A stretch of DNA of 32,000 nucleotides from Acaryochloris marina MBIC11017 (GTDB lineage Bacteria > Cyanobacteriota > Cyanobacteriia > Thermosynechococcales > Thermosynechococcaceae), in NCBI RefSeq assembly GCF_000018105.1, contig NC_009925.1:420001-452000 (forward strand). The letters run 5' to 3'. The notes below the pieces were generated by a model. That model saw only the letters and a program-made list of their open reading frames with translations, was not told the origin of the DNA and ran no database searches. Positions 6,544 to 30,142 of the stretch are shown one piece after another. Within the stretch, counting starts at the first letter, position 1. Each line of letters opens with the position of its first letter. A program made the translations under genes and the position numbers.

Positions 6544-7740
6544 ATGAAGATTTTAGTTCTCAATGCCGGTTCTAGCAGCCACAAATGTTGCCTTTACGCG
6601 ATTGAAGGGCCTCTCCCCGACCATCCAGCACCTCCGCTTTGGGAAGCTCAGCTGGATTGGCATGACCCCAATCATGCCTCGTTAAAAGTCAAAACCAAAC
6701 GAGAAAATCTGGAGGAAGACCTATCTGATGTATCACGCGCCGACGCGCTCTCTCATCTTTTAACCACCCTATGGCATGGGCCTACCCAAGTCATCCAAAT
6801 GGCACAGGAGATTAATGTTGTCGGTCATCGTGTGGTGCATGGGGGACAAGACTATCAGTCCAGTGTGGTGGTGACATCGGAGGTTAAAACTGCGATCGCA
6901 GATCTGATTCCTTTAGCCCCCAACCATAATCCAGCCAATTTAGAAGGCATTAAATTGATCGAACAATTGTTAGGAAATGTTCGCCAAGTAGCTGTCTTCG
7001 ATACTGCCTTTCACAGTCATCTTCCCGAAGTTGCGGCCATCTATCCCGGTCCCTATGATTGGCAACAACAAGGCATTCGTCGGTATGGGTTTCATGGCAT
7101 TAGTCATCAATATTGCACCCAGCGAACGGCAGAAATTCTGGGCCGAGGGGTGGACCGCCTGATTATTTGTCATTTGGGAAATGGAGCATCTCTGACAGCG
7201 GTTAAACAAGGTCAGAGTATCGACACCTCGATGGGCTTCACCCCCTTAGAAGGATTGATGATGGGTACGCGTTCAGGGTCGATTGATCCAGGCATTTTAA
7301 TTCATCTGATGCGGCAAGGATATGATGCCGATCAGCTAGATCACATGCTTAATAAAGCCTCTGGCTTAAAGGGGATCTCAGGGGTCTCCCATGATCTGCG
7401 GGAGATTGAGCAGGCCATTGCCCAAGACAATGCCCAAGCTAAGCTAGCGCGAGACTTATATCTCCATCGATTGAAAGCTTGTTTGGGGTCCATGCTGATG
7501 AGCTTAGGTGGAGTTGATGTCTTAGTGTTTACGGGTGGTATAGGGGAGCATTCTGCTTCAGTGAGAGCTGAGACCTGTGAAGCACTGGCTTTTTTGGGCC
7601 TTAAGCTTGATCCGATTCTGAATCGAAAGTCTCCTGTAGATCAGGATATTGCAGCAGTTGACTCTAAGGTGCGGGTATTAGTGATTAAGACCCAGGAAGA
7701 TTGGGCCATTGCTCAATCTTGTTATGAACAGTGTTGTTAG
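6544..7740 (+). CDS. ackA: Acetate kinase
   Basis: N-terminus MKILVLNAGSSSHK, plus VGHRVVHGG, FDTAFH, RRYGFHGISHQY and FTGGIGEH. The product is 398 aa and the gene starts 51 nt after the PK-like gene. Confidence 0.95.
   Translation: MKILVLNAGSSSHKCCLYAIEGPLPDHPAPPLWEAQLDWHDPNHASLKVKTKRENLEEDLSDVSRADALSHLLTTLWHGPTQVIQMAQEINVVGHRVVHGGQDYQSSVVVTSEVKTAIADLIPLAPNHNPANLEGIKLIEQLLGNVRQVAVFDTAFHSHLPEVAAIYPGPYDWQQQGIRRYGFHGISHQYCTQRTAEILGRGVDRLIICHLGNGASLTAVKQGQSIDTSMGFTPLEGLMMGTRSGSIDPGILIHLMRQGYDADQLDHMLNKASGLKGISGVSHDLREIEQAIAQDNAQAKLARDLYLHRLKACLGSMLMSLGGVDVLVFTGGIGEHSASVRAETCEALAFLGLKLDPILNRKSPVDQDIAAVDSKVRVLVIKTQEDWAIAQSCYEQCC
6892..6899. repeat. HIP1 octamer GCGATCGC
   Basis: Exact match read in the sequence. 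Confidence 0.95.
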
Positions 7741-7785
7741 GGCTGCAGAGGAATGTTGCCGATGCTAGAGAGCAAGATGAGAGGG

Positions 7786-7823
7786 GTTGCGATGGCGAAA
7801 GGCTGCTCTTTGAGCATCGCAAC
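7786..7823 (+). repeat. Perfect 9-bp inverted repeat (GTTGCGATG / CATCGCAAC, 20-nt loop) just downstream of ackA
   Basis: Read directly from the sequence. No U-tract follows, so a terminator function is uncertain. Confidence 0.3.
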
Positions 7824-7896
7824 TGCAATACCATCCCCTAGGCAAACTAGCTGAATCCTGAACCCAATCTAAATCAAAGCTTCTAGGCATTCACCA

Positions 7897-8295
7897 CTAA
7901 GAGACTAAATGCATCTTCGCCGTTTCGGGGTGAAATCCTGTGGGGAAATGAGTGTTGCGATCGTAATCGGCAGCAGCTAACCGAGCATCGCTTAATTCAG
8001 CTTCTCTCAGATCGGCCCCCATCAAATTAGCCCCTCGTAGATCCGCTCCTTTGAGATTGGCACTTTGCAAAAAAGCTCCGCCTAAGTCTGCACCTCTGAG
8101 GTTAGATCCTTGCAAATTGGCTTCGCCCAGATCCACAGACTCTAGATCTGCCCCTGCCAAGTAGACGTCTTGGAAGTTCACTGCACTCAAATCCATCTCA
8201 CTGAGGGCAATACCGCGTAAATTAGCCCCTGCAAAATCTCGCTTTCCTGAAGCGTATTGGGCAACAAAATCATCTCGATTCATCACTGTCATCAT
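7897..8295 (-). CDS. Pentapeptide-repeat protein
   Basis: Tandem A(D/N)LxG-type pentapeptides (ANLRGIALSEMDLSAVNF..ANLQGSNLRGADLGGAFLQSANLKGADLRGANLMGADLREAEL). The likely start is the ATG pair at 8295/8292 after an AGGGGTG Shine-Dalgarno-like sequence. The track start at 8370 is a longer extension. Confidence 0.8.
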   Translation of the reverse strand: MMTVMNRDDFVAQYASGKRDFAGANLRGIALSEMDLSAVNFQDVYLAGADLESVDLGEANLQGSNLRGADLGGAFLQSANLKGADLRGANLMGADLREAELSDARLAAADYDRNTHFPTGFHPETAKMHLVS

Positions 8296-8651
8296 GGCTT
8301 CACCCCTATCTAGATGGATCGAGTTCAAGGCAAAGTGATCTCTACTTTGATCATAGACCAGCAGTCGCATTTGAACAGAAAGTTACGCTTTTAATTTTCT
8401 GAATTAGTGTAAACCTTGCCAGCTTATAATTTTCGCTGTAGGTCATCAATGAAATATGTCACAGTCCATGCAAGGGTCACACTTTTCTTTGTGGACAAGT
8501 GCGGAGAGCTACTTTTAGGTAAGGGTTTAAGATTTTTTTAGCTGCCAGAAAGTGGCCTCTGGCATTGTTAAATAGATTGACTGTATTCTGGAGCCTAGAA
8601 GGAGATCGTTCAGCGGATTGAGGCTGAAGCAACCTCCTTTTCAACGTGCTC

Positions 8652-9743
8652 TTAGCTCGTCATTATCGGAATCGTAGGAATTTCCTTAGACTCGGTTGAA
8701 GCTAGCGTTAAGGAGAAGTGATGGGCATTAACTGAATGCATCACCTGTAGTCCCATCGTGGCCCGATTCAAGAGATCGGCTTCGGTGCGGATGGGTCGTC
8801 CACTGCTATCGAGCAGAGAGTGATTGAAATTAAACCCATTCAAATTGAATGCCATCGTGCCGATGCCTAAAGCGGCAAACCAGATACCGATCGTGGGCAG
8901 TACCGCCAATAGAAAATGAATGGAACGGCTATTACGAAAGGCAATATCAGGGATAAACAAGCGTCCTAGATATCCAGCATGTCCCGCGAGTAAATTATAG
9001 GTGGCTTCCTGTTGGCCAAATTTATACCCCGTATTAACAGATTTCAGGCTAGAGGTTTCCTGAACCAAGCTGGAGGTGACTAAAGAGCCATGCATGGCAC
9101 TGAGGAAGGCTCCACCAAAGACACCGACTACCCCCAACATATGAAACGGATGCATCAAGATATTATGTTCCGCTTGAACCGCCATCATAAAGTGGAAGGT
9201 GCCGGAAATTCCTAGGGGTAACCCTTCGGAGAAGCTTCCTTGTCCCATTGGGTACACCAATAGCACTGCCGTGGCAGCAGCAACTGGGGCAGAAAAAGCC
9301 ATAGCAATCCAGGGACGCATACCCAGACGATAGCTCAACTCCCACTGTCGCCCCAGATAGGTCCAAATAGCGATCAAAAAATGCAAGATGATCAGTTGAT
9401 AAGGCCCTCCGTTGTAGAGCCACTCATCCATCGATGTAGCTTCCCATAAGGGGTATAAGTGTAAACCTATTGCGGCTGAAGTAGGTATCACCGCAGCAGT
9501 AATCACATTACTTCCACCTAGAAGAGAACTGATAATAGGTTCACGAATACCTTCCATATCAACAGAAGGGGCCGCCACCCAGGCGAGCATGAAGGTTATG
9601 GCTGAAACGAATAGGGATGGAATCATCAGTAGGCCAAACCAACCAACATAGAGCCGATTGTGGGTACTGGTAATCCACTCACAAAATTGGTCCCAGGCGG
9701 AAACAGTGGGTAATCTCGATGGAGTTTGAAACGTAGTAGACAT
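8652..9743 (-). CDS. psbA: Photosystem II D1 paralog lacking Mn4CaO5 ligands (rogue/sentinel-type D1)
   Basis: Aligns over its full length with canonical D1 recalled from memory. Retained: Tyr161, Glu189, His190, His198, His215, His272, His332, His337, Ala344. Substituted: Asp170->Glu (GQGSFSEG), Glu333->Ser and Asp342->Thr ([15 protein letters not shown]). AGGAG lies 9 nt upstream of the ATG. Confidence 0.88.
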
Positions 9744-9777
9744 AGTTATTGCTCCTGTTAGCGTGATGGAGTTGAGA

Positions 9778-10209
9778 TTAAGTATTGGGTTTGGGCCCTA
9801 AATGTCCTGGAGTCGTAACTGTAAAGCCAGATGGATAACCCGAAATCGTGTTGAAACCGCACTGACGCCAATGCTGCATGCCACCCGATAAATTGAATAC
9901 CTGAGTGAACCCAGCCTTGAGCAATTGGGCTGCTGCCAGGGGACTACGATGGGATGTTAGACACACCACTACTATGGGCTGGTCCTTAGATAAGGCTTGA
10001 AACCAATCAGGAAGGACCCACCGGTTGATGATGGGGAGTTGGCCGATGAGCAGGCGTAATAAACTGAGATTGATGGCATTAGGGATATGTTCTGCTCGGT
10101 ATTCTCCGACACTGCGAACATCCAGTAGCAGTGGGGGTGGAATGAGTTTGGTGTAGGCCAACGGCGAAACCTGAGTCACCGAAGCGCGGTGTGAATGATA
10201 GTTATACAT
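9778..10209 (-). CDS. Single-domain rhodanese (thiosulfate/persulfide sulfurtransferase)
   Basis: Rhodanese fold motifs are present: [21 protein letters not shown], the active-site loop [10 protein letters not shown] (Cys-X4-Arg) and NLSGGMQHW. It starts 51 nt downstream of the Rieske fusion gene and ends 34 nt upstream of psbA. Confidence 0.85.
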
Positions 10210-10260
10210 AGTCGTAGAAATAGAATTGGGGTGAGAAATGAATGGTCAGTGGTGATGGCG

Positions 10261-11292
10261 CTAGGCCACGGTGCCGAGGGGTTGGGCGTCAACGTAGTCT
10301 TGGATAAAGTGCAGCAGTTGGGGGTGTGCGGCTAGGGGCAGGTCCAGTTTGTGAACTTGGGCCAATAGCTGGTCTGTGGTCCATTGCTGATGAACGGCTT
10401 CGTAGAGCAATGCCATCGCACCAGAGCGTAACCCTCCTTTGCAATGCAAGAGAATGGGTTTGGATAGCTGATCTATGATCGTCAACACTTGTTCAGCCGT
10501 GGCCTCTGAGAGGTCTGCTGGATTAATGGGTAGATTGGCATAGTTCATGCCTGCGCTGTGCACAAGTTGGGACTCATTGATGAGAAAGCCGTCTTCCTGA
10601 GGCGATCTCAAATTCAATACAGACTTAAACCCCAGTTGGGCCGCATCTTGAATCTGGTCAGGGGTTGGCTGGAGCATAGCGACGGAGAGCTGCTCATTGA
10701 TTTGAAGGGTATATTGCATGAGATTTTCCGGTGTAGGGTGGTCATCAAAGGTATCCGCCTTGACCCACCAGGGGCGGTCCCCGGTGCGTGGGTCAAGCTC
10801 GGTCCAAGGCAGAATCCAGATTTGTTCACCTTCAACTTGGACATGCACCAACTTGAGGGGTCGATCGGCAGGACCGCGCACCACGGAACCATCGGCTGCA
10901 AAGCGAGATCCGTGGCAAGGACATTGAAATTGATCGGCAGCACCATTCCAGGGAAATGTGCAGCCTAAATGGGTGCAGTTATCGACGATGCCCCGATCCT
11001 CAATTTGACCTGTGATCGTCAGGGTTAAATAGGTCGGTTCACTATCTAGTCCTGCCACGAGGGCACGAGTGCCAGGCGGTTCTGCCAAGAGTTGACTAGT
11101 GGGGATGGGGTTGCCCAGGGCATCCTTTGCTAGAACCCGCCCCGCCCCTCTGCTGGAGTTTGGGGGTACAAAAACACGACTGATGGGATAGAGGGTTGCA
11201 CCTGCCGTGATGGCTACCGCCGACCCGGTCAAGAAATTGAGAAACCGTCGCCGGGAGAGAGAGGGCTGAGAAATAGATAAACTCTCGTTCAT
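10261..11292 (-). CDS. Fusion protein: Tat-signal PetC-type (cytochrome b6f) Rieske iron-sulfur protein + C-terminal DUF442 (PTP-like sulfurtransferase) domain
   Basis: N-terminal half: [24 protein letters not shown] (twin-arginine signal plus TM helix), AKDALGNPI, Rieske boxes CTHLGC and [12 protein letters not shown], and [14 protein letters not shown], which is a b6f PetC-type C-terminus. C-terminal ~150 aa: [32 protein letters not shown] (DUF442-like HCxxGxRS loop). GGAGA lies upstream of the ATG. Confidence 0.85.
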
Positions 11293-11322
11293 AGAGATTC
11301 TCCGAGCTGAGGGTGGGTAGAG

Positions 11323-11535
11323 TTATTGGGAAAGTTGACGAGCATTAGTGTGAATCCCCAACAATCGATAAATCGGACAGAACCCCAGTAAGGCGGTAAA
11401 GGTTGGAATTGCGGCTGCGATCGCTAACCCCATACCGAGGGTTGAGCCGCTATAGGTGCCTAATCCTAAATAAAGTAGTAATCCACCCAAACCTATTCGA
11501 AACAGGCGATCCATTAAGCCCAGATTTTTGGTCAT
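11323..11535 (-). CDS. DUF2892 / YgaP-like small membrane protein
   Basis: 70 aa. The pattern GLMDRLFRIGLGGLLL...LLGFCPIYRLLGI is typical of the YgaP-like transmembrane domain. A strong AGGAGG lies upstream. This is the first gene of the minus-strand operon. Confidence 0.7.
   Translation of the reverse strand: MTKNLGLMDRLFRIGLGGLLLYLGLGTYSGSTLGMGLAIAAAIPTFTALLGFCPIYRLLGIHTNARQLSQ
11417..11424. repeat. HIP1 octamer GCGATCGC
   Basis: Exact match read in the sequence. Confidence 0.95.
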
Positions 11536-11584
11536 CTTTTTTGCCTCCTAGATTTGTAGAGTGATAAGCAAGATGATATTAATC

Positions 11585-11600
11585 ATTATATAACTATATA
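11585..11600 (-). promoter_or_regulatory. Candidate promoter/operator 16-mer TATATAGTTATATAAT (read on the minus strand) upstream of the DUF2892-Rieske-rhodanese-psbA operon
   Basis: Identical at 16/16 positions to 21262-21277 upstream of arsR, in the same orientation relative to the downstream gene. Its 3' hexamer is a consensus -10 TATAAT, 49 nt before ATG 11535. Confidence 0.5.
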
Positions 11601-11854
11601 GTAATTAAAGCAATATATTCTTTAAATGACATTCTGTAAGTCTTGCCAGCCCTATTCTTATTTAGCGGTTTAGACGTTGTATTTGACGACTGTTTGGACT
11701 AAATAAAATTCTCTAAAAGTATCTTTTATGTACTTCAAGACCTTTCTAAGTCTAGATCAGTCTCCTTCAGATTCATCAACAGTATCCTCTGGTGAAAGCG
11801 GAGTTGATGCTGCAAGCAGGAATGGCCTGATGAAATTAAATTTGACTATATTGC

Positions 11855-11870
11855 TATTTAGTTATATATT
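11855..11870 (+). promoter_or_regulatory. Related site TATTTAGTTATATATT on the sqr side of the divergent region
   Basis: Matches the shared 16-mer at 14/16 positions and is oriented toward sqr. It lies 196 nt upstream of ATG 12067. Confidence 0.3.
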
Positions 11871-12066
11871 GAAGATCAGCTTAAAATCGAATGATTAGTA
11901 TCAAAGCTCAGGTCTTGTTTTATCTCTAGTGCTGCTTGCAGTGACCTATCTAGTACAACCCGCTTGCTCCAAGCCTATGGAGATTTAGAAGAAGGCTAGC
12001 CCCCTTCAACCTGCGCAACTTAATTAATTGAAATCCTTTTCAGACCGACCTTTGAGAGGTTTATAT

Positions 12067-13377
12067 ATGGCTCATATTGTTGTCATTGGAGCAGGATTGG
12101 CAGGATTGCCGACTGCCTATGAGTTGAGGTACCTGTTACCTAGTCAGCATCAAATTACCCTGATCTCCAATACCTCTAAATTCACATTTATTCCATCCCT
12201 TCCTTGGGTCGCGCTAGGGCTGATCCCCTTGGCTAAGATTCAGTTAGAACTGGAGGAGTTGGTGATTCAACAGGGAATAAGATGGCTCCCTGAAGCGGTG
12301 GTTCACCTGAATCCTCGGACTCAAACTGTTTATACAGATTCTCAGTCTTTGGCCTATGACTACGTCGTCATTGCCACCGGAGCCGAGTTAGCCTTGGATA
12401 CGGTATCCGGCCTGGGACCAGAGCAGGGCTTTACCCAGTCGATTTGCAATCCTCACCATGCTTTAATGGCCAACAGTGCTTGGCAAAATTTTTTACAGAA
12501 TCCGGGTCCTTTAGTGGTGGGGGCAGTGCCCGGGGCAAGCTGTTTTGGCCCTGCCTATGAGTTTGCCTTATTAGCCGATTACACTCTTCGCCAGCAAGGG
12601 TTGCGGGATCAAGTTTCCCTTACATTTGTGACACCGGAACCCTATGCGGGGCATTTGGGGATTGGCGGCATGGCAAATTCTAGCCAGCTCGTGACGGAGT
12701 TGATGGCGGCCAGAGACGTGGCAGTTTTGGAGAATACCGCCATCGACTCCGTCACATCTCAGGAGATTATTTTGGCCAATGGCGACGCGGTGCCCTTCCA
12801 GTACGCTATGTTGCTGCCGCAGTTTCGAGGGCCTGGCTTTGTTCGTGAGACAGCGGGGTTAGGGGATACCAAGGGGTTTCTGCCCATATTGCCCACCTAT
12901 CAGCATCCTGTTTTTCCCTCAGTGTTTAGTGCAGGTGTTGTCACTCAATTAGCACCACCAGAGGTAACTCCGATAGCAATCGGGGTGCCAAAAACTGGAC
13001 AAATGGTTGAAGCAATGGGGATGGCAGTGGCTCACAATATTGCCCTGGCCTTAGGGGCCATCTCAGATCAGCCTGTTACCCCCACCTTAGAAGCCATCTG
13101 CTTTGCAGACTTTGGAGATACAGGATTACTCTTTTTGGCGGACCCCGTTCTGCCTGATCCAGTGACGGGACGGCGACGCCGCGCCATTACCCTAGGGGGG
13201 CGTTGGGTGGGTTGGTTGAAAACAGCATTTGAACGCTATTTTCTAGCCAAAATGCGCTGGGGAGCTGCCGTCCCTTGGTTTGAGCGCTTGGGGCTTCGGG
13301 CCGCGGGTTTTTCTTTGTTAGAGGCCGCTCCTTCGACGGAACCTGACTCGGTACGCGAGGACGTCCTGATTCATTGA
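12067..13377 (+). CDS. sqr: Sulfide:quinone oxidoreductase, type I
   Basis: MAHIVVIGAGLAG FAD fold. Colinear with Rhodobacter and Oscillatoria SQR as recalled, including the three conserved Cys contexts TQSIC, GASCFGPAYEF and AICFADFGD, plus GVPKTGQM and ERYFL. ATG 12067 follows GAGAGG. The track start at 12028 is a TTG extension. Confidence 0.93.
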   Translation: MAHIVVIGAGLAGLPTAYELRYLLPSQHQITLISNTSKFTFIPSLPWVALGLIPLAKIQLELEELVIQQGIRWLPEAVVHLNPRTQTVYTDSQSLAYDYVVIATGAELALDTVSGLGPEQGFTQSICNPHHALMANSAWQNFLQNPGPLVVGAVPGASCFGPAYEFALLADYTLRQQGLRDQVSLTFVTPEPYAGHLGIGGMANSSQLVTELMAARDVAVLENTAIDSVTSQEIILANGDAVPFQYAMLLPQFRGPGFVRETAGLGDTKGFLPILPTYQHPVFPSVFSAGVVTQLAPPEVTPIAIGVPKTGQMVEAMGMAVAHNIALALGAISDQPVTPTLEAICFADFGDTGLLFLADPVLPDPVTGRRRRAITLGGRWVGWLKTAFERYFLAKMRWGAAVPWFERLGLRAAGFSLLEAAPSTEPDSVREDVLIH

Positions 13378-20188: not shown

Positions 20189-21067
20189 GTAAAGCTCTCA
20201 AGGTACTAATCTGTCAATACACAAACACTGGACAGGACCTAGAGAGCAATGCCTACAGCATATGATAGCGACCTCACCACCCTGCAATGGGAATTACTTG
20301 AGCCTTTGATTCCTGCTGCTAAACCTGGAGGTAGACCTCGCACCACTGATATGCTCAGTGTTCTCAATGCCATTTTTTATCTCGTGGTTACAGGTTGTCA
20401 GTGGAGACAACTACCTCATGATTTTCCCTGTTGGTCAACGGTCTATAGCTATTTTCGAAGGTGGCGCGATGATGGGACTTGGAGTCAAATCAATGAACAT
20501 CTACGCATGCAAGTGCGGGTGAGTGAAGACCGTCATCCCAGTCCCAGTGCCGCTATCTGCGATGCTCAATCGGTCAAAGTCGGCAATCCTCGGTGTCACT
20601 TGATTGGGTTTGATGGTGGGAAAATGGTCAAAGGTCGTAAACGTCATGTGCTCGTTGATACTTTAGGGCTGGTTTTGATGGTGATGGTCACTGCTGCCAA
20701 TATCTCTGACCAACGAGGGGCCAAAATACTGTTTTGGAAAGCTCGACGCCAAGGTGCGAGTTTGTCCCGTCTAGTTCGGATATGGGCCGATGCTGGCTAT
20801 CAAGGACAAGCTTTGATGAAGTGGGTAATGGACCGTTCTCAATATGTCTTGGAAGTGATCAAACGCTCAGATAATCTAGCGGGGTTTCAGGTTGTTTCCA
20901 AACGATGGATTGTAGAACGGACGTTTGGATGGTTGTTGTGGTCTCGACGTCTTAATAAAGATTATGAGGTGCTGACTAGGACGGCTGAAGCGCTTGTTTA
21001 TGTGGCGATGATTCGACTCATGGTTCGAAGGCTAGCGCAGGAGCACTAAAACTTCTCAAACAGCCTC
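20170..21067 (+). mobile_element. Intact IS5-family (IS1031-group-like) insertion sequence, 898 bp
   Basis: Perfect 17-bp terminal inverted repeats GAGGCTGTTTGAGAAGT (20170-20186, and the reverse complement of 21051-21067). A 3-bp direct duplication TCA flanks it (20167-20169 and 21068-20170 side: 21068-21070). It carries a single transposase ORF. Size, GAG ends and the 3-bp DR fit my recollection of the IS1031 subgroup. Confidence 0.85.
20249..21049 (+). CDS. IS5-family DDE transposase
   Basis: 266 aa. N-terminal DLT..QWELLEPLIP...GGRPR..D.....NAIFY...TGCQWR.LP..FP.W.TVY.YF.RW..DG.W. DDE region VDTLG..., IWADAGYQG, VERTFGWL..RRL.KDYE. Confidence 0.9.
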   Translation: MPTAYDSDLTTLQWELLEPLIPAAKPGGRPRTTDMLSVLNAIFYLVVTGCQWRQLPHDFPCWSTVYSYFRRWRDDGTWSQINEHLRMQVRVSEDRHPSPSAAICDAQSVKVGNPRCHLIGFDGGKMVKGRKRHVLVDTLGLVLMVMVTAANISDQRGAKILFWKARRQGASLSRLVRIWADAGYQGQALMKWVMDRSQYVLEVIKRSDNLAGFQVVSKRWIVERTFGWLLWSRRLNKDYEVLTRTAEALVYVAMIRLMVRRLAQEH

Positions 21068-21261: not shown

Positions 21262-21277
21262 TATATAGTTATATAAT
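21262..21277 (+). promoter_or_regulatory. Candidate autoregulatory promoter/operator TATATAGTTATATAAT upstream of arsR
   Basis: Lies within the palindrome TTATAT-AGTT-ATATAA (21261-21276). It is identical at 16/16 positions to the minus-strand site at 11585-11600. It ends in a consensus -10 TATAAT (21272-21277), 35 nt before ATG 21313. Confidence 0.5.
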
Positions 21278-21312: not shown

Positions 21313-21675
21313 ATGTCCGACATTGTTGATAAACAAGTTTCTCCAGAAGTACTCGTAGCTGTGGCTGACTATTTTAAGGTTCTTTCAGAGGTCAGCCGCT
21401 TGCAGATCCTCAGCAACCTTAGATCAGGCCCCATGACGGTTAATGATCTGGTGGATGCGACAGGTCTTGGACAGGCCAATCTTTCCAAACATTTAAAGGT
21501 GTTGACTCAGGCGGGTCTTCTCTCCCGCACCCCCAGTGGCGTCAGTGCTTACTATGAGATTGTCGATCCACTGGTGTTTGAACTGTGTGAATCAGTGTGT
21601 GATTCCATTAGCGATCGCTTATTGCAGCAGGCACAGAAATTTAATCAATTCAAATCCTTCAGCAAATCGTCATAG
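21313..21675 (+). CDS. ArsR/SmtB-family winged-helix transcriptional regulator
   Basis: Motifs FKVLSEVSRLQILSNL....MTVNDLVDATGLGQANLSKHLKVLTQAGLL.R..G....Y. The only cysteines are Cys92 and Cys96 (ELCESVCD) in the predicted alpha5 helix. Confidence 0.9.
   Translation: MSDIVDKQVSPEVLVAVADYFKVLSEVSRLQILSNLRSGPMTVNDLVDATGLGQANLSKHLKVLTQAGLLSRTPSGVSAYYEIVDPLVFELCESVCDSISDRLLQQAQKFNQFKSFSKSS
21611..21618. repeat. HIP1 octamer GCGATCGC
   Basis: Exact match read in the sequence. Confidence 0.95.
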
Positions 21676-21777: not shown

Positions 21778-22494
21778 ATGCAGTCCCTTAACCAGCTGAT
21801 GGAGTCCTATGCTGCCGGACAGCGAGACTTTGCCCACAGCCAACTTCTCGAAGCAGAAATTGTGAAGGCTGATTTGGCAGGTATTGATCTGAGTCGGGCG
21901 GATCTGCGGCAAGCTCGGCTTGGACGTACCAATTTCAGTCATGGAACGTTTAGGGAGGCAGATTTAAGTGAAGCCCTGCTATGGGGGGCGGATTTAAGCG
22001 GGGCCGATCTTAGCAGCGCAGTATTGCGCGAAGCTGATTTGAGTGGGGCTAAATTAGTCCAGGTTAATCTGGCCAAGGCCAACCTCTACAAAGCCAGCCT
22101 GTGTGGGACTAATCTAAGGCAGGCCAATCTCACGGAGACCATTTTGTATGAGGTGGATTTAAGACCTTCCTTGGATCAGGGAACCGATTTGGGGGAGGCC
22201 GATCTGACCAATGCGGAGTTGAATTATGCCCATCTGAGTGGGGCAACGTTGGCCCACGCTATCTTAGTGGGGGCTAAACTTTGCCGCGCAAACTTGAGTC
22301 AGCAAGGATGGGGGGGACAGGTGCCGACGGATTTAAGGGGAGCTGACCTCCAACAGGCTGATTTGAGCTATGCAGATTTGCGTGGTGCTTGGTTACAAGA
22401 GGCCAACCTCCGCCGAGCGGATTTAACGGGGACCGATTTAGGGGGTGCCCAATTGACAGGGGCCATTATGCCGGATGGGCGGACTTATACCTAA
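21778..22494 (+). CDS. Pentapeptide-repeat protein
   Basis: 238 aa, almost entirely A(D/N)L(S/R)xA-type pentapeptide repeats (ADLSEALLWGADLSGADLSSAVLREADLSGAKL...). Confidence 0.85.
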   Translation: MQSLNQLMESYAAGQRDFAHSQLLEAEIVKADLAGIDLSRADLRQARLGRTNFSHGTFREADLSEALLWGADLSGADLSSAVLREADLSGAKLVQVNLAKANLYKASLCGTNLRQANLTETILYEVDLRPSLDQGTDLGEADLTNAELNYAHLSGATLAHAILVGAKLCRANLSQQGWGGQVPTDLRGADLQQADLSYADLRGAWLQEANLRRADLTGTDLGGAQLTGAIMPDGRTYT

Positions 22495-27138: not shown

Positions 27139-29445
27139 ATGACTGAAGACTTTGTAACCTCATCGCCTCAGCATTCACAGTCCTGGCAGCAAGCCATTCT
27201 AGATAGTGCCGATTTCGTTATTGTTTCAACAGATATTAATGGGTTAATTCAAACCCTAAATGCAGGAGCATTAAAACAATTTGGCTATTCACCTGAGGAA
27301 ATCATTGATAGAGTCACCCCAATCATCTTTCATGACCCAGAAGAAGTCGAGCAGCGGGCGCAAGTCCTCTCCCATGAGTTGGGCCATGCCATTGAACCAG
27401 GTATGGAGACCCTTATCGTCAAAGCACGTATGGGGATGGTCGATGAAAATATCTGGACCTTGATTCGCAAAGATCACAGTCGGTTCCCCGTTCGCTTATC
27501 TGTTACAGCACTTAGGAATGATTTAGGCCATTTAACAGGGTTTCTCGGGATTGGCAAAGATATTACTGCGCAACAAGCTGCTGAAGCCTCTCTAGTCGAA
27601 AGCGAAGCGCGATTCTCAGCCGCGTTTCAAAATGCTCCTATAGGCATGGCTTTAGTGTCTCCCAGTGGTCAGTGCCTAAGAGTGAATCATGCCCTAGCTC
27701 ATTTACTGGGATATCCCCAAACCAAACTGATGGATCTCATCCTCACTGAGATGATCCATCCCAAAGATCGATCCATAGAAGAAACGAACCGACTACGACT
27801 TGTTGCAAGAGAGATTGGCAACTACTGCTTAGAGCTACGCTGTCTTCATCAGCAGGGGCATGAGGTATGGGTTTTGATGAATGTATCTCTGGTCAATGGC
27901 CAAGAGGTTTACCCTCCCTACTGCATTGTCCAAGTACAAGATATTACCAGGCGCAAACAAGCAGAAGCACAACTCCAGCGCCTCAACGCCAATCTGGAGC
28001 AACTGGTTGAGGAACGGACTCGCCAACTCAAAGAAGCGATTGAAACCACTGAAATCGCCAATCAAGCCAAAAGCCGATTTATCGCCAATATGAGCCATGA
28101 GTTTCGCACGCCTCTCAACGGCATCATGGGTTTTAGTCAACTCTTGCTTCAAGATCGTCGCATTACGTCAGATCAGCAATCTAACCTCAATGTCATCCTT
28201 CGCAGTGGTGAGCACTTACTCTCGCTGGTCAACGAAGTCATTACCCTCTCCAAGATTGAAGCAGGAATGCTTGCCTATGAGTCCAAAGATGTCAATCTGC
28301 ACCATCTTTGTGAGGGGGTGGAAGACTTATTATCCCTACAGGCGAATTCCAAAGACATTCAGTTTCAAATTCATATCGCTCCTGACGTTCCCCAATACGT
28401 GAGAACAGATGCTAAAAAACTACGGCAAATCTTGATTAACTTACTGGGTAATGCCTTGAAGTTTACGAAACGAGGCAGTGTCGTGTGTCAGGTGCAGTGG
28501 CGGCCTTCGGCACCGGAGCGCTCTGCCCATGAATTACATTTCATCATTCAAGATACAGGTCCAGGGATTCCTGGGCATTTACTACCTCAACTTTTTGAAC
28601 CCTTTGCTCAAGACCCGTTGAATCGTGAGACATTTGGTGGCATTGGCTTGGGGCTAACCATTTGCCAAAGATTTATCCATCTGATGAAGGGGGACATTTC
28701 CATTGAGAGTGTTGAGGGGCAAGGAACAACCGTTAGTTTTTACATTCAAGTTGAATCAGGTGAGCCTGTTCTAGAACCAGCAATATCTGAGACAACCGTT
28801 GAGGGTCTTGCAGAGAATACTCCCTCCTATCGCGTTTTAGTCGTAGAAGATTATCCTGATAACCGCGAGATTTTGCTCATGATGCTTGAAGTAGTGGGGT
28901 TTGAGGTCAAAGAGGCTGTGAATGGCCAAGAGGCAGTGGACCTTAACCGAACATGGCAACCCCATTTAATTTGGATGGATTTACAGCTGCCTGTATTAAA
29001 TGGCCTGGAGGCTACTCAATTAATCAAATCCCAGAATCCAAATCCACCTGTCATCATTGCCATCACCGCCCAGGCGCTGGAATCTGACGAAGTGAAAGCG
29101 CTCAAAGCTGGGTGCGATGACTATCTTCGTAAACCCTATCAAGCCGCTCAAGTTTTTGAGAAAATGGCTCAACATTTAGATATCACCTATCGTTATAAAA
29201 CGTCCAATTCATCTCATACTTCAGCAGATCCGATTTCTCTCTCGGCAGATGAGTTAGCCAACATGCCCCCTTCCTGGATACAGCTTCTGTATGATGCTGC
29301 CATTATGTTGGATGAAGATATGCTTGATCTCTTGCTTAGAGACATTCCTGATGACCAGCACTCCCTTAAATCTTCTTTGGAGTATCTAATGGCCACTTAT
29401 CAATATGACGTCATTATGGAGAAGGCTCAAGCGGTTTTGAGATAG
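27139..29445 (+). CDS. Hybrid sensor histidine kinase / response regulator (PAS-PAS-HisKA-HATPase-REC plus a C-terminal ~85-aa tail)
   Basis: Two PAS modules (each ending ..GIGKDITAQ and ..[11 protein letters not shown]), a coiled coil, the H-box [18 protein letters not shown], the N/G boxes [19 protein letters not shown] and GGIGLGLTI, and a receiver domain [12 protein letters not shown]...IWMDLQLP...KPY. Confidence 0.9.
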
Positions 29446-30110: not shown

Positions 30111-30142
30111 TTATATAGCTAAATAGATATATGGCTATATAA
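30111..30142. promoter_or_regulatory. Perfect 9-14-9 inverted repeat TTATATAGC-N14-GCTATATAA upstream of the RND pump gene
   Basis: Read directly from the sequence. The half-sites resemble the TATATAG / TATATAAT halves of the 16-mer shared by 11585-11600 and 21262-21277. The right arm overlaps a TATAAT (30138-30143), 32 nt before ATG 30176. Confidence 0.4.

Follow-up and report, generated by a model that had tools for sequence, protein, structure and literature searches.

The 32,000-nucleotide stretch of the Acaryochloris marina MBIC11017 chromosome analysed here (the window, with positions counted from its first nucleotide) carries psbA1, which encodes an already published Group 2 ('rogue' or 'sentinel') D1 protein of photosystem II (PSII). 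PsbA1 probably replaces the standard D1 at low O2 or with an over-reduced plastoquinone (PQ) pool, giving a PSII that would not evolve O2. The open reading frame (ORF) at 8652..9743 is read from the minus strand and consists of an ATG start, 363 codons (363 aa) and a stop; a Shine-Dalgarno-like AGGAG precedes the start by 8 nt. Its product was identical to ABW25504.1/WP_012161111.1/UniProt B0CB14, 'Photosystem II protein D1 1, Acaryochloris marina MBIC 11017', and the supplement of PMC5295598 lists the gene as AM1_0448, psbA1, with psbA at chromosome 428652..429743, which puts the window at 420,001-452,000 of the MBIC11017 chromosome. When all PDB chains were searched by phmmer, T. elongatus PsbA2 (7yq2) was the best match (E = 9e-166, 68 % identity); about 50 further D1 chains scored comparably, and D2 was far weaker (1e-48). 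The product matched Pfam PF00124 Photo_RC, the type II reaction-centre proteins, with 297 bits (cut-off 27). However, it reached 577.1 bits on the NCBIfam psbA equivalog TIGR01151, under the curated cut-off of 596.05, which was an early sign of an atypical D1. The window was 99.985 % identical to the 6.4-Mb chromosome AP026075.1 of A. marina MBIC10699 (PMC9324425), with 3 substitutions in 19.7 kb, and matched several sequencing-run assemblies at 100 %; the psbA1 ORF was intact and identical in the two strains.

Residues were mapped by a HMMER alignment to solved D1 structures, which was gap-free save for one inserted residue right after His252. The register was unambiguous, the PsbA1 number being the canonical number plus 3 up to His252 and plus 4 beyond it (canonical numbers are used below). 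With 68 % identity to solved D1, a structure model was unnecessary for this mapping; the AlphaFold2 model, made from a 51-sequence Group 2 alignment of too little diversity, had a mean pLDDT of 50 and a pTM of 0.36 and was unusable. An original prediction, read by eye from the sequence, had described a D1 paralog that keeps the electron-transfer ligands and loses Mn-cluster ligands. Its register held in the formal alignment and the ligand losses are real. Y161 (TyrZ), H190, E189, H198, H215, H272, H332, H337 and A344 were all retained as it had listed, and H118, Y246, H252 and F265 were kept too. PsbA1 has every ligand for P680, ChlZ, pheophytin, the non-haem iron and QB (His215, Phe265 backbone), together with the TyrZ-His190 pair.

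The predicted changes at the Mn site, D61E, D170E, E333S and D342T, were likewise all recovered. The set of Mn4CaO5 ligands (D170, E189, H332, E333, D342, A344) is incomplete in PsbA1: D170E is conservative, and two of the six are swapped for non-carboxylates, namely E333, which bridges Mn3 and Mn4, and D342, which bridges Mn1 and Mn2. Mutants with D170E are cited as assembling the cluster and evolving O2 (Nixon & Diner, 1992, cited in PMC4408414), whereas E333A and most D342 mutants were unable to assemble it (PMC4408414). Since D170E is tolerated and neither D61E nor D170E is disabling alone, the case for a missing Mn4CaO5 cluster rests on E333S together with D342T. We also found N87A, N181H, V185A, F211L, E244A, A251G, E329Q, R334V and N338H, which the prediction had not listed, so that the chloride-site and channel residues N181, N338, E329 and R334 are all changed. 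The predicted 15-residue tail after Ala344 was located (Table 1). CtpA processing, which had been called plausible, would take place at L-T-L-A/S, and in the family described below about 90 % of the members keep A344, L343 and a tail at the C-terminus.

On the acceptor side, the formal alignment reproduced all of the predicted changes in the QB loop: the one-residue insertion after His252, F255L, Y262D, S264A and N266R. The inserted Ala256 follows His255, the equivalent of H252, and thus adjoins a protonation residue. Furthermore, E244A removes a bicarbonate ligand, and position 130 is Gln, as in other Group 2 members. S264 is Ala or Gly in Group 2, which has been likened to herbicide-resistant mutants, and the S264A/G change weakens QB binding (PMC4408414). 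With the cofactor ligands and the TyrZ-His190 pair present, E333 and D342 lost and the QB pocket altered, a PSII built on PsbA1 should separate charge and oxidise TyrZ and should evolve no O2. The residue mapping thereby supports what had been predicted, namely charge separation and TyrZ oxidation, no Mn4CaO5 and an altered QB site, and the same function was inferred earlier for Group 2 in general (PMC4408414) and for A. marina PsbA1 (PMC10889353).

Group 2 is the rogue D1 of Murray (2012), and Cardona et al. (2015) named Acaryochloris explicitly (PMC4408414). In their survey, D170 of Group 2 is mostly Glu, no member has E333 (Ala, or in fewer cases Ser, takes its place), D342 is replaced (in a few by N, S or T) and A344 is often kept. 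On the QB side, a unique one-residue insertion at G253 is found in all, with H252 kept, and E244 is lost in 30 of 36; elsewhere, Q, L or M occupies position 130, E329 becomes Gln or Arg, and R334 is mostly Pro, with Val in few (PMC4408414). A. marina PsbA1 itself was reported with Glu170, Ser333 and Thr342 and assigned to rogue D1 (PMC10889353). Our alignment agrees: PsbA1 has the G253 insertion, D170E, S264A, Gln130 and E329Q, lacks Glu333, Asp342 and Glu244, and keeps TyrZ, His190 and the electron-transfer ligands. It is thus a member, and among the founding examples, of the group whose best-studied protein is PsbA4 of Cyanothece sp. ATCC 51142 (described by Wegener et al., 2015). The residue pattern is not new, being known down to single residues in this very protein, and the original prediction was correct but missed the 'rogue D1' identity.

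The homolog set consisted of the best 120 matches in a search of 5.8 billion proteins. The insertion and a residue other than Glu at 333 occurred together in 106 of these 120, and the other sequences belonged to standard D1, most of them chimeric gene calls of excessive length. Conservation was counted on 107 Group 2 sequences. Y161, H190, H252, H272, H337 and N335 were invariant, and H332 was kept in 100. The altered residues were also widely held in common: A87 in 106, E170 in 99, L255 in 98, G251 and P334 in 96 each, A344 in 93, R266 and Q329 in 92 each, H338 in 86, H181 in 82 and A185 in 75. Position 333 was Ala in 73, Ser in 30 and Gly in 2. Within this family PsbA1 is unusual in keeping Glu189 (19/107; most have Asp or Gln) and in having Val334 (8/107) and Thr342 (13/107), where Pro334 and Leu or Val342 are commoner, as Ala333 is than its Ser333; its Asp at 262 is outside the seven commonest residues there. 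The dN/dS ratio (nonsynonymous to synonymous substitution rates) between psbA1 and its nearest relative was 0.06 at a dS of about 1.0, indicating that the gene is under strong purifying selection. The same substitutions in 75-100 % of the 107 members, together with this dN/dS, are not what chance or sequence decay would leave. Judged from these sequences, the donor-side differences are a conserved alternative residue state in Group 2 and not random degradation.

In the neighbour-joining tree (Kimura distances, 335 columns, indel column excluded, 200 bootstraps), which sampled the best 120 matches to the query and a standard set including T. elongatus PsbA2 (G3) and PsbA3 (G4) but no G0 or G1 sequences, Group 2-like and standard D1 were split in 200 of 200 bootstraps. 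A phylogeny against the D1 groups had been proposed with the original prediction; the part of it that this sampling covers stood, PsbA1 being apart from G3 and G4 in every bootstrap. PsbA1 formed a sub-clade with P0004, P0009 and P0014 (195/200) whose common signature is E170/E189/S333/V334/T342.

Some minor observations concern the homolog set. Both chloride-site asparagines are replaced in Group 2, N181 by His in 82/107 (Tyr in 20) and N338 by His in 86/107, which adds two His beside the former Mn site; the main text of Cardona et al. (2015) (PMC4408414) makes no mention of positions 181, 338, 87 and 266. The top-scoring homologs (P0001-P0011, P0015, P0020) were over-long (430-545 aa) metagenome or plant 'D1' calls with duplicated D1 segments. 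These outranked true relatives in bit score despite about 67 % identity, an artefact of score-ranked homolog lists. For the ortholog of Acaryochloris sp. CCMEE 5410, WP_010476048.1 (P0122; 363 aa), which falls in the same 90 % cluster, NCBI and UniRef give the name 'photosystem I reaction center subunit IX', an evident mis-annotation.

Published expression data fit a role of PsbA1 at low O2. In normal aerobic growth psbA1 is nearly silent, at 23-40 reads per kilobase per million (RPKM) by the values given in PMC5295598. Under micro-oxic conditions, RNA-seq values in that article and its supplement rise from 23 to 711 RPKM, a log2 fold change (log2FC) of 4.9 or about 30-fold, and the log2FC reported there for psbA1 spans 2.6-4.9. 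The three genes that precede psbA1 in a closely spaced unit (Table 1) are listed in the same supplement with 12 to 772 RPKM for the rhodanese gene AM1_0449 (log2FC 5.9), 5 to 604 RPKM for the Rieske fusion AM1_0450 (log2FC 6.7) and 1 to 1691 RPKM for AM1_0451 (log2FC 9.7). Moreover, psbA1 is cited as induced by 2,5-dibromo-3-methyl-6-isopropyl-p-benzoquinone (DBMIB) (Kiss, 2012, cited in PMC4408414). Group 2 genes in general are described as expressed under conditions that make O2 evolution unwanted, namely darkness, micro-oxia or a reduced PQ pool. We propose that low O2 or an over-reduced PQ pool would lead to PsbA1 taking the place of standard D1 in PSII repair and assembly. The resulting reaction centre would keep charge separation and TyrZ oxidation, would not photo-assemble Mn4CaO5 and so would produce no O2, and its QB site would bind and exchange quinone weakly, like S264A mutants, with slow electron transfer to PQ. 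PSII could thus be held in a safe, non-O2-evolving state while fermentation runs (genes for AdhE, phosphoketolase and acetate kinase lie nearby) and sulfide:quinone oxidoreductase (SQR) feeds the quinone pool.

Several points weigh against this proposal. PSII without O2 evolution was demonstrated for Cyanothece PsbA4 only, which according to papers citing Wegener et al. (2015) allowed PSII assembly but no photoautotrophy as the sole D1 in Synechocystis; for A. marina PsbA1 it would hold by analogy. PsbA1 is also less degenerate than most Group 2 proteins: Glu189 is kept, Ser333 and Thr342 are polar, and the LTLA/S site looks intact, whereas Cyanothece PsbA4 is described as lacking the LDLA motif. 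With such a residue set and a conserved donor side, residual activity and some or different metal binding are conceivable. Furthermore, deletion of psbA4 in Cyanothece is described as mild and PSII regulation as largely independent of psbA4, so that even for this best-studied protein the 'sentinel' or placeholder role is unestablished. Since A. marina MBIC11017 is not an N2 fixer (PMC4408414), protection of nitrogenase cannot explain psbA1 there. Finally, co-transcription of AM1_0451 to AM1_0448 is inferred from spacing and co-induction.

Group 2 D1 bears on how cyanobacteria switch off O2 evolution and on how water oxidation evolved, since published phylogenies place the Group 2 branch earlier than standard D1. 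The literature has made both arguments since 2012-2015, with this protein among those used, and our finding adds no new knowledge to them. What the window does offer is handles on the role of a rogue D1 in a host that does not fix N2: a sulfur-transfer/PetC operon, the adjoining sqr, and an operator-like element in common with a probably autoregulated ArsR-family gene.

The four genes of the psbA1 unit lie on the same strand with 30, 51 and 34 nt between them. Its co-transcription and its parallel with the Synechocystis psbA1-rhodanese-petC2 cluster were suggested previously (PMC5295598). In AM1_0450, residues 1-176 pass the PetC equivalog (258 bits, cut-off 250) and residues 197-321 match Blh/TIGR01244; the twin-Arg motif SRRRF and the Rieske boxes CTHLGC and CPCH are intact, and the sulfurtransferase-like domain has an HCKGGLRS loop. 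Given the twin-Arg signal and PetC topology, both domains of the fusion, Rieske and sulfurtransferase, are predicted to lie on the lumenal side. We compared 80 PetC-paralog loci, among which the Rieske-sulfurtransferase fusion was found in 18, from several cyanobacterial orders. A psbA gene stood within 6 kb in 12 of the 80, being Group 2 in 7 and full-ligand in 5, often with SQR, the YgaP-like gene and rhodanese alongside. However, the complete psbA1 operon recurred only in close relatives, at L007 (88 % identity), L013 (an Acaryochloris metagenome-assembled genome, MAG) and L014 (a Thermosynechococcaceae MAG). The Stanieria Group 2 locus kept the YgaP-like gene alone, and at 4 of the 6 sampled Group 2 loci the psbA1-type operon was absent and the neighbours were unrelated, so this operon is not a general Group 2 feature. 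PsbA1 thus differs from other Group 2 proteins in being encoded by the distal gene of a sulfur-transfer/PetC-like operon, a layout common to its closest relatives only, and in its non-N2-fixing host. The full-ligand, insertion-free psbA genes found with a PetC paralog and rhodanese, at L026, L030 (Cyanothece sp. BG0011), L033 (Crocosphaera chwakensis CCY0110, also with SQR), L059 and L091, presumably encode Group 3 D1'. In an earlier survey, sqr was near a Group 2 or Group 3 psbA in 15 genomes (Grim & Dick, 2016). Because the module occurs with both Group 2 and full-ligand psbA, it is linked to low-oxygen or sulfidic conditions and not to lost water oxidation as such.

A near-palindrome, TATATA-RY-TATATA, occurred in the window with 9 strand-matches against 0.05 expected, and its copies stand in the promoter regions of the psbA1 operon and of sqr and upstream of the ArsR-family gene AM1_0463 (Table 1). 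Across the 80 PetC-paralog loci it was 11-fold enriched within 300 bp 5' of the operon start (0.82 vs 0.076 per kb, p = 9e-13), and nearly every ortholog of AM1_0463 has it just 5' of its own start. It was also present at L007, L013, L016, L020-L025, L031, L038, L041, L056, L076, L078, L079 and L092. An ArsR-type regulator that also controls its own gene, with AM1_0463 as the candidate, probably uses the element as its operator and would thereby link the psbA1 operon with sqr. Its identity as a ChlR box was considered and rejected, since it differs from TTMCC-N3/4-GGWAA; the strict form of that box was found nowhere in the window. A promoter and terminator scan of 7700-12100 gave 4 promoter-like sites against 5.9 expected, which is not above chance, so these sites served for positional context alone; the same scan gave no terminator after psbA1. 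We found no discussion of the element in the literature covered.

These neighbours lend some support to one other explanation, which is the sole rival to have any: PsbA1-PSII may function as a photo-oxidoreductase whose donor side is altered, with a reduced metal site, or TyrZ, taking electrons not from water but from another donor, for instance Mn2+ or reduced sulfur. The site could hold one or two Mn or another metal on E170, E189, H332, H337, the A344 carboxylate and His181/His338, and PsbA1 would be tied to the lumen-facing Rieske sulfurtransferase domain, the rhodanese and SQR. We consider this explanation unlikely. In its favour, the donor-side set is conserved (E170 in 99, H181 in 82, H338 in 86, H332 in 100, A344 in 93 and C-terminal tails in 97 of 107) at a dN/dS of 0.06, the operon partners are sulfur-transfer proteins of which the twin-Arg fusion would place its Rieske and sulfurtransferase domains in the lumen, and the module of SQR, YgaP-type membrane protein, PetC paralog, low-O2 psbA and rhodanese recurs in distant cyanobacteria (also Grim & Dick, 2016). 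The original prediction had raised an alternative lumenal electron donor as pure speculation, and speculation it stays. A related idea, that complexes with PsbA4 have an unidentified enzymatic function, is reportedly already in print. However, the conserved residues could equally serve folding or assembly with CP43 and extrinsic proteins. The module also accompanies full-ligand psbA (5 of 12 loci), and most sampled Group 2 psbA genes have unrelated neighbours. Moreover, sulfide is a known donor-side inhibitor of PSII, and the accepted route of sulfide electrons in cyanobacteria runs from SQR through plastoquinone to photosystem I (PSI) (Grim & Dick, 2016). The fullest form of this idea, which we regard as quite improbable, is that rogue-D1 PSII belongs to a sulfide-adapted chain under ArsR control through the TATATA-RY-TATATA element that it shares with sqr, and that its donor side (E170, E189, H181, H332, H337, H338 and the A344 carboxylate) photo-oxidises Mn2+ or reduced sulfur, maybe handled by the lumenal Rieske-fused sulfurtransferase.

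The remaining explanations fit the data less well than a non-O2-evolving Group 2 D1. It is very improbable that PsbA1 is a functional, water-oxidising low-O2 D1 like the Group 3 D1' proteins (Synechocystis PsbA1, slr1181; T. elongatus PsbA2, 7yq2), which share with it micro-oxic induction and, in Synechocystis psbA1, the nearby rhodanese and petC paralog; PsbA1 also has E189, H332 and A344, and its D170E is a tolerated change. However, D1' evolves O2, its six Mn4CaO5 ligands are complete and it has no insertion after His252, whereas in PsbA1 both E333 and D342 are non-carboxylate, and E333A and D342 mutants fail in cluster assembly (PMC4408414). PsbA1 also falls under the psbA equivalog cut-off and groups with Group 2, all 200 bootstraps separating it from T. 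elongatus PsbA2, and we rejected the D1' assignment on E333S/D342T and the phylogeny. Standard Group 4 D1 (A. marina PsbA2 and PsbA3; T. vulcanus PsbA1, 3wu2) has the same fold and cofactor ligands at about 66-68 % identity, and PsbA1 differs from it in the loss of E333 and D342, the QB-loop insertion and its score below that threshold. There is scarcely any likelihood that PsbA1 modifies pigments as the enzyme ChlF does (Group 1, 'super-rogue'), which here would make it the chlorophyll d (Chl d) synthase. ChlF, too, is a D1 paralog without Mn ligands that keeps the charge-separation residues, assembles into a PSII-like complex and modifies chlorophyll as a photo-oxidoreductase, and the Chl d synthase is unidentified. 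In contrast to PsbA1, though, ChlF carries Q127-D128 and H252Q, is induced by far-red light and belongs to the far-red light photoacclimation (FaRLiP) cluster. In PsbA1, positions 127/128 are Leu-Gly (Leu130-Gly131), His252 is kept, and the window neighbours of psbA1 are fermentation, sulfur-transfer, SQR and low-O2 tetrapyrrole genes, with no FaRLiP genes among them. The ground for excluding ChlF was its set of published signature residues (Q127-D128, H252Q or Arg; PMC10535343), the tree containing no ChlF. Furthermore, Chl d synthesis proceeds in complete darkness (PMC9003380) and during normal aerobic growth, a state in which psbA1 is hardly expressed, and Group 2 D1 is widespread in cyanobacteria without Chl d; the absent QD motif, dark Chl d synthesis and near-silence in normal growth led us to reject this function. 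Lastly, the near-silence in standard culture might suggest a decaying, functionless paralog, which is hardly credible: the intact, strain-identical ORF, the dN/dS of 0.06, the signature conserved over 107 homologs and the 30-fold micro-oxic induction, that is selection and expression alike, refute it.

Table 1. Positions in the window of psbA1, its diagnostic residues, the neighbouring genes and the TATATA-RY-TATATA copies (residues in PsbA1 numbering, canonical numbers where stated).
Feature	Position	Strand	Basis or remark
psbA1 (AM1_0448), Group 2 D1, last gene of four-gene unit	8652..9743	-	PDB/Pfam matches, exact identity
C-terminal extension of 15 residues following Ala344 (canonical)	8655..8699	-	8-20-residue tails in 97/107 family members
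Leu-Thr-Leu-Ala = canonical LDLA 341-344, D342T with A344 kept	8700..8711	-	alignment
His342 (N338H) codon	8718-8720	-	family alignment
His336-Ser337-Val338 = H332 kept, E333S, R334V	8730..8738	-	alignment; Glu333 absent in 105/107 family members
Remodelled QB loop; inserted Ala256 at 8976-8978, S264A at 8940-8942	8922..8987	-	alignment to PDB D1
His184 (N181H) codon	9192-9194	-	family alignment
Glu173 codon, canonical D170E (Mn4/Ca ligand position)	9225..9227	-	alignment; E in 99/107 family members
Rhodanese-domain protein (AM1_0449), 34 nt 5' of psbA1	9778..10209	-	Pfam/NCBIfam; active-site Cys loop CLTSHR
PetC-type Rieske protein with C-terminal DUF442/TIGR01244 sulfurtransferase-like domain (AM1_0450)	10261..11292	-	NCBIfam, motifs
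DUF2892/YgaP-like small membrane protein (AM1_0451), first operon gene	11323..11535	-	Pfam PF11127
TATATAACTATATA, operator-like near-palindrome, psbA1-operon promoter region	11587..11600		just downstream of sole minus-strand promoter-like site, 11640-11612
Second element copy, overlapping promoter-like site 5' of sqr	11855..11868 (also 11847)		motif and promoter scan
Sulfide:quinone oxidoreductase sqr (AM1_0452, annotated start 12067), divergent from operon	12028..13377	+	E = 5.8e-96 to Aquifex SQR 3hyv (phmmer, PDB)
ArsR-family regulator (AM1_0463), element 40 nt upstream at 21262-21275	21313..21675	+	Pfam HTH_5; PDB matches ArsR, SmtB, BigR, SqrR
Further element copy	23617		motif
Tandem element pair upstream of AcrB-like gene	30112-30141		motif

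The psbA1 operon and sqr are part of a low-oxygen island of about 30 kb that takes up the whole window (AM1_0442 to AM1_0471). Genes for AdhE, phosphoketolase, pyruvate kinase and acetate kinase stand on one side, and on the other are an NrdG-like activase, the ArsR-family regulator and a cluster of AcsF(ChlAII)-like, heme oxygenase and HemN genes. The island further contains an RND adaptor, NMO, a TrxR-like gene, NUDIX and a PAS hybrid histidine kinase. By the supplement of PMC5295598, the genes checked from AM1_0445 through AM1_0471 were all micro-oxically induced, with log2FC of 2 to 9.7, for example 2.5 for ackA, 5.1 for sqr, 6.8 for acsF, 6.0 for ho and 7.1 for hemN; AM1_0469, by coordinates the PAS histidine kinase (27139-29445), lay outside the values covered. 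An IS4/IS5-family transposase gene (AM1_0462; 20249-21049, plus strand) separates the TrxR-like/ankyrin genes from the ArsR gene, and the MBIC10699 copy of the region (L002 16-153) has an additional IstB_IS21 fragment call. Two pentapeptide-repeat proteins were also found, one encoded directly 3' of psbA1 (7897-8370, minus strand; Alr5209 family, just under the cut-off) and the other at 21778-22494 (plus strand), for which the same supplement gives micro-oxic log2FC of 2.2 and 5.8, respectively.

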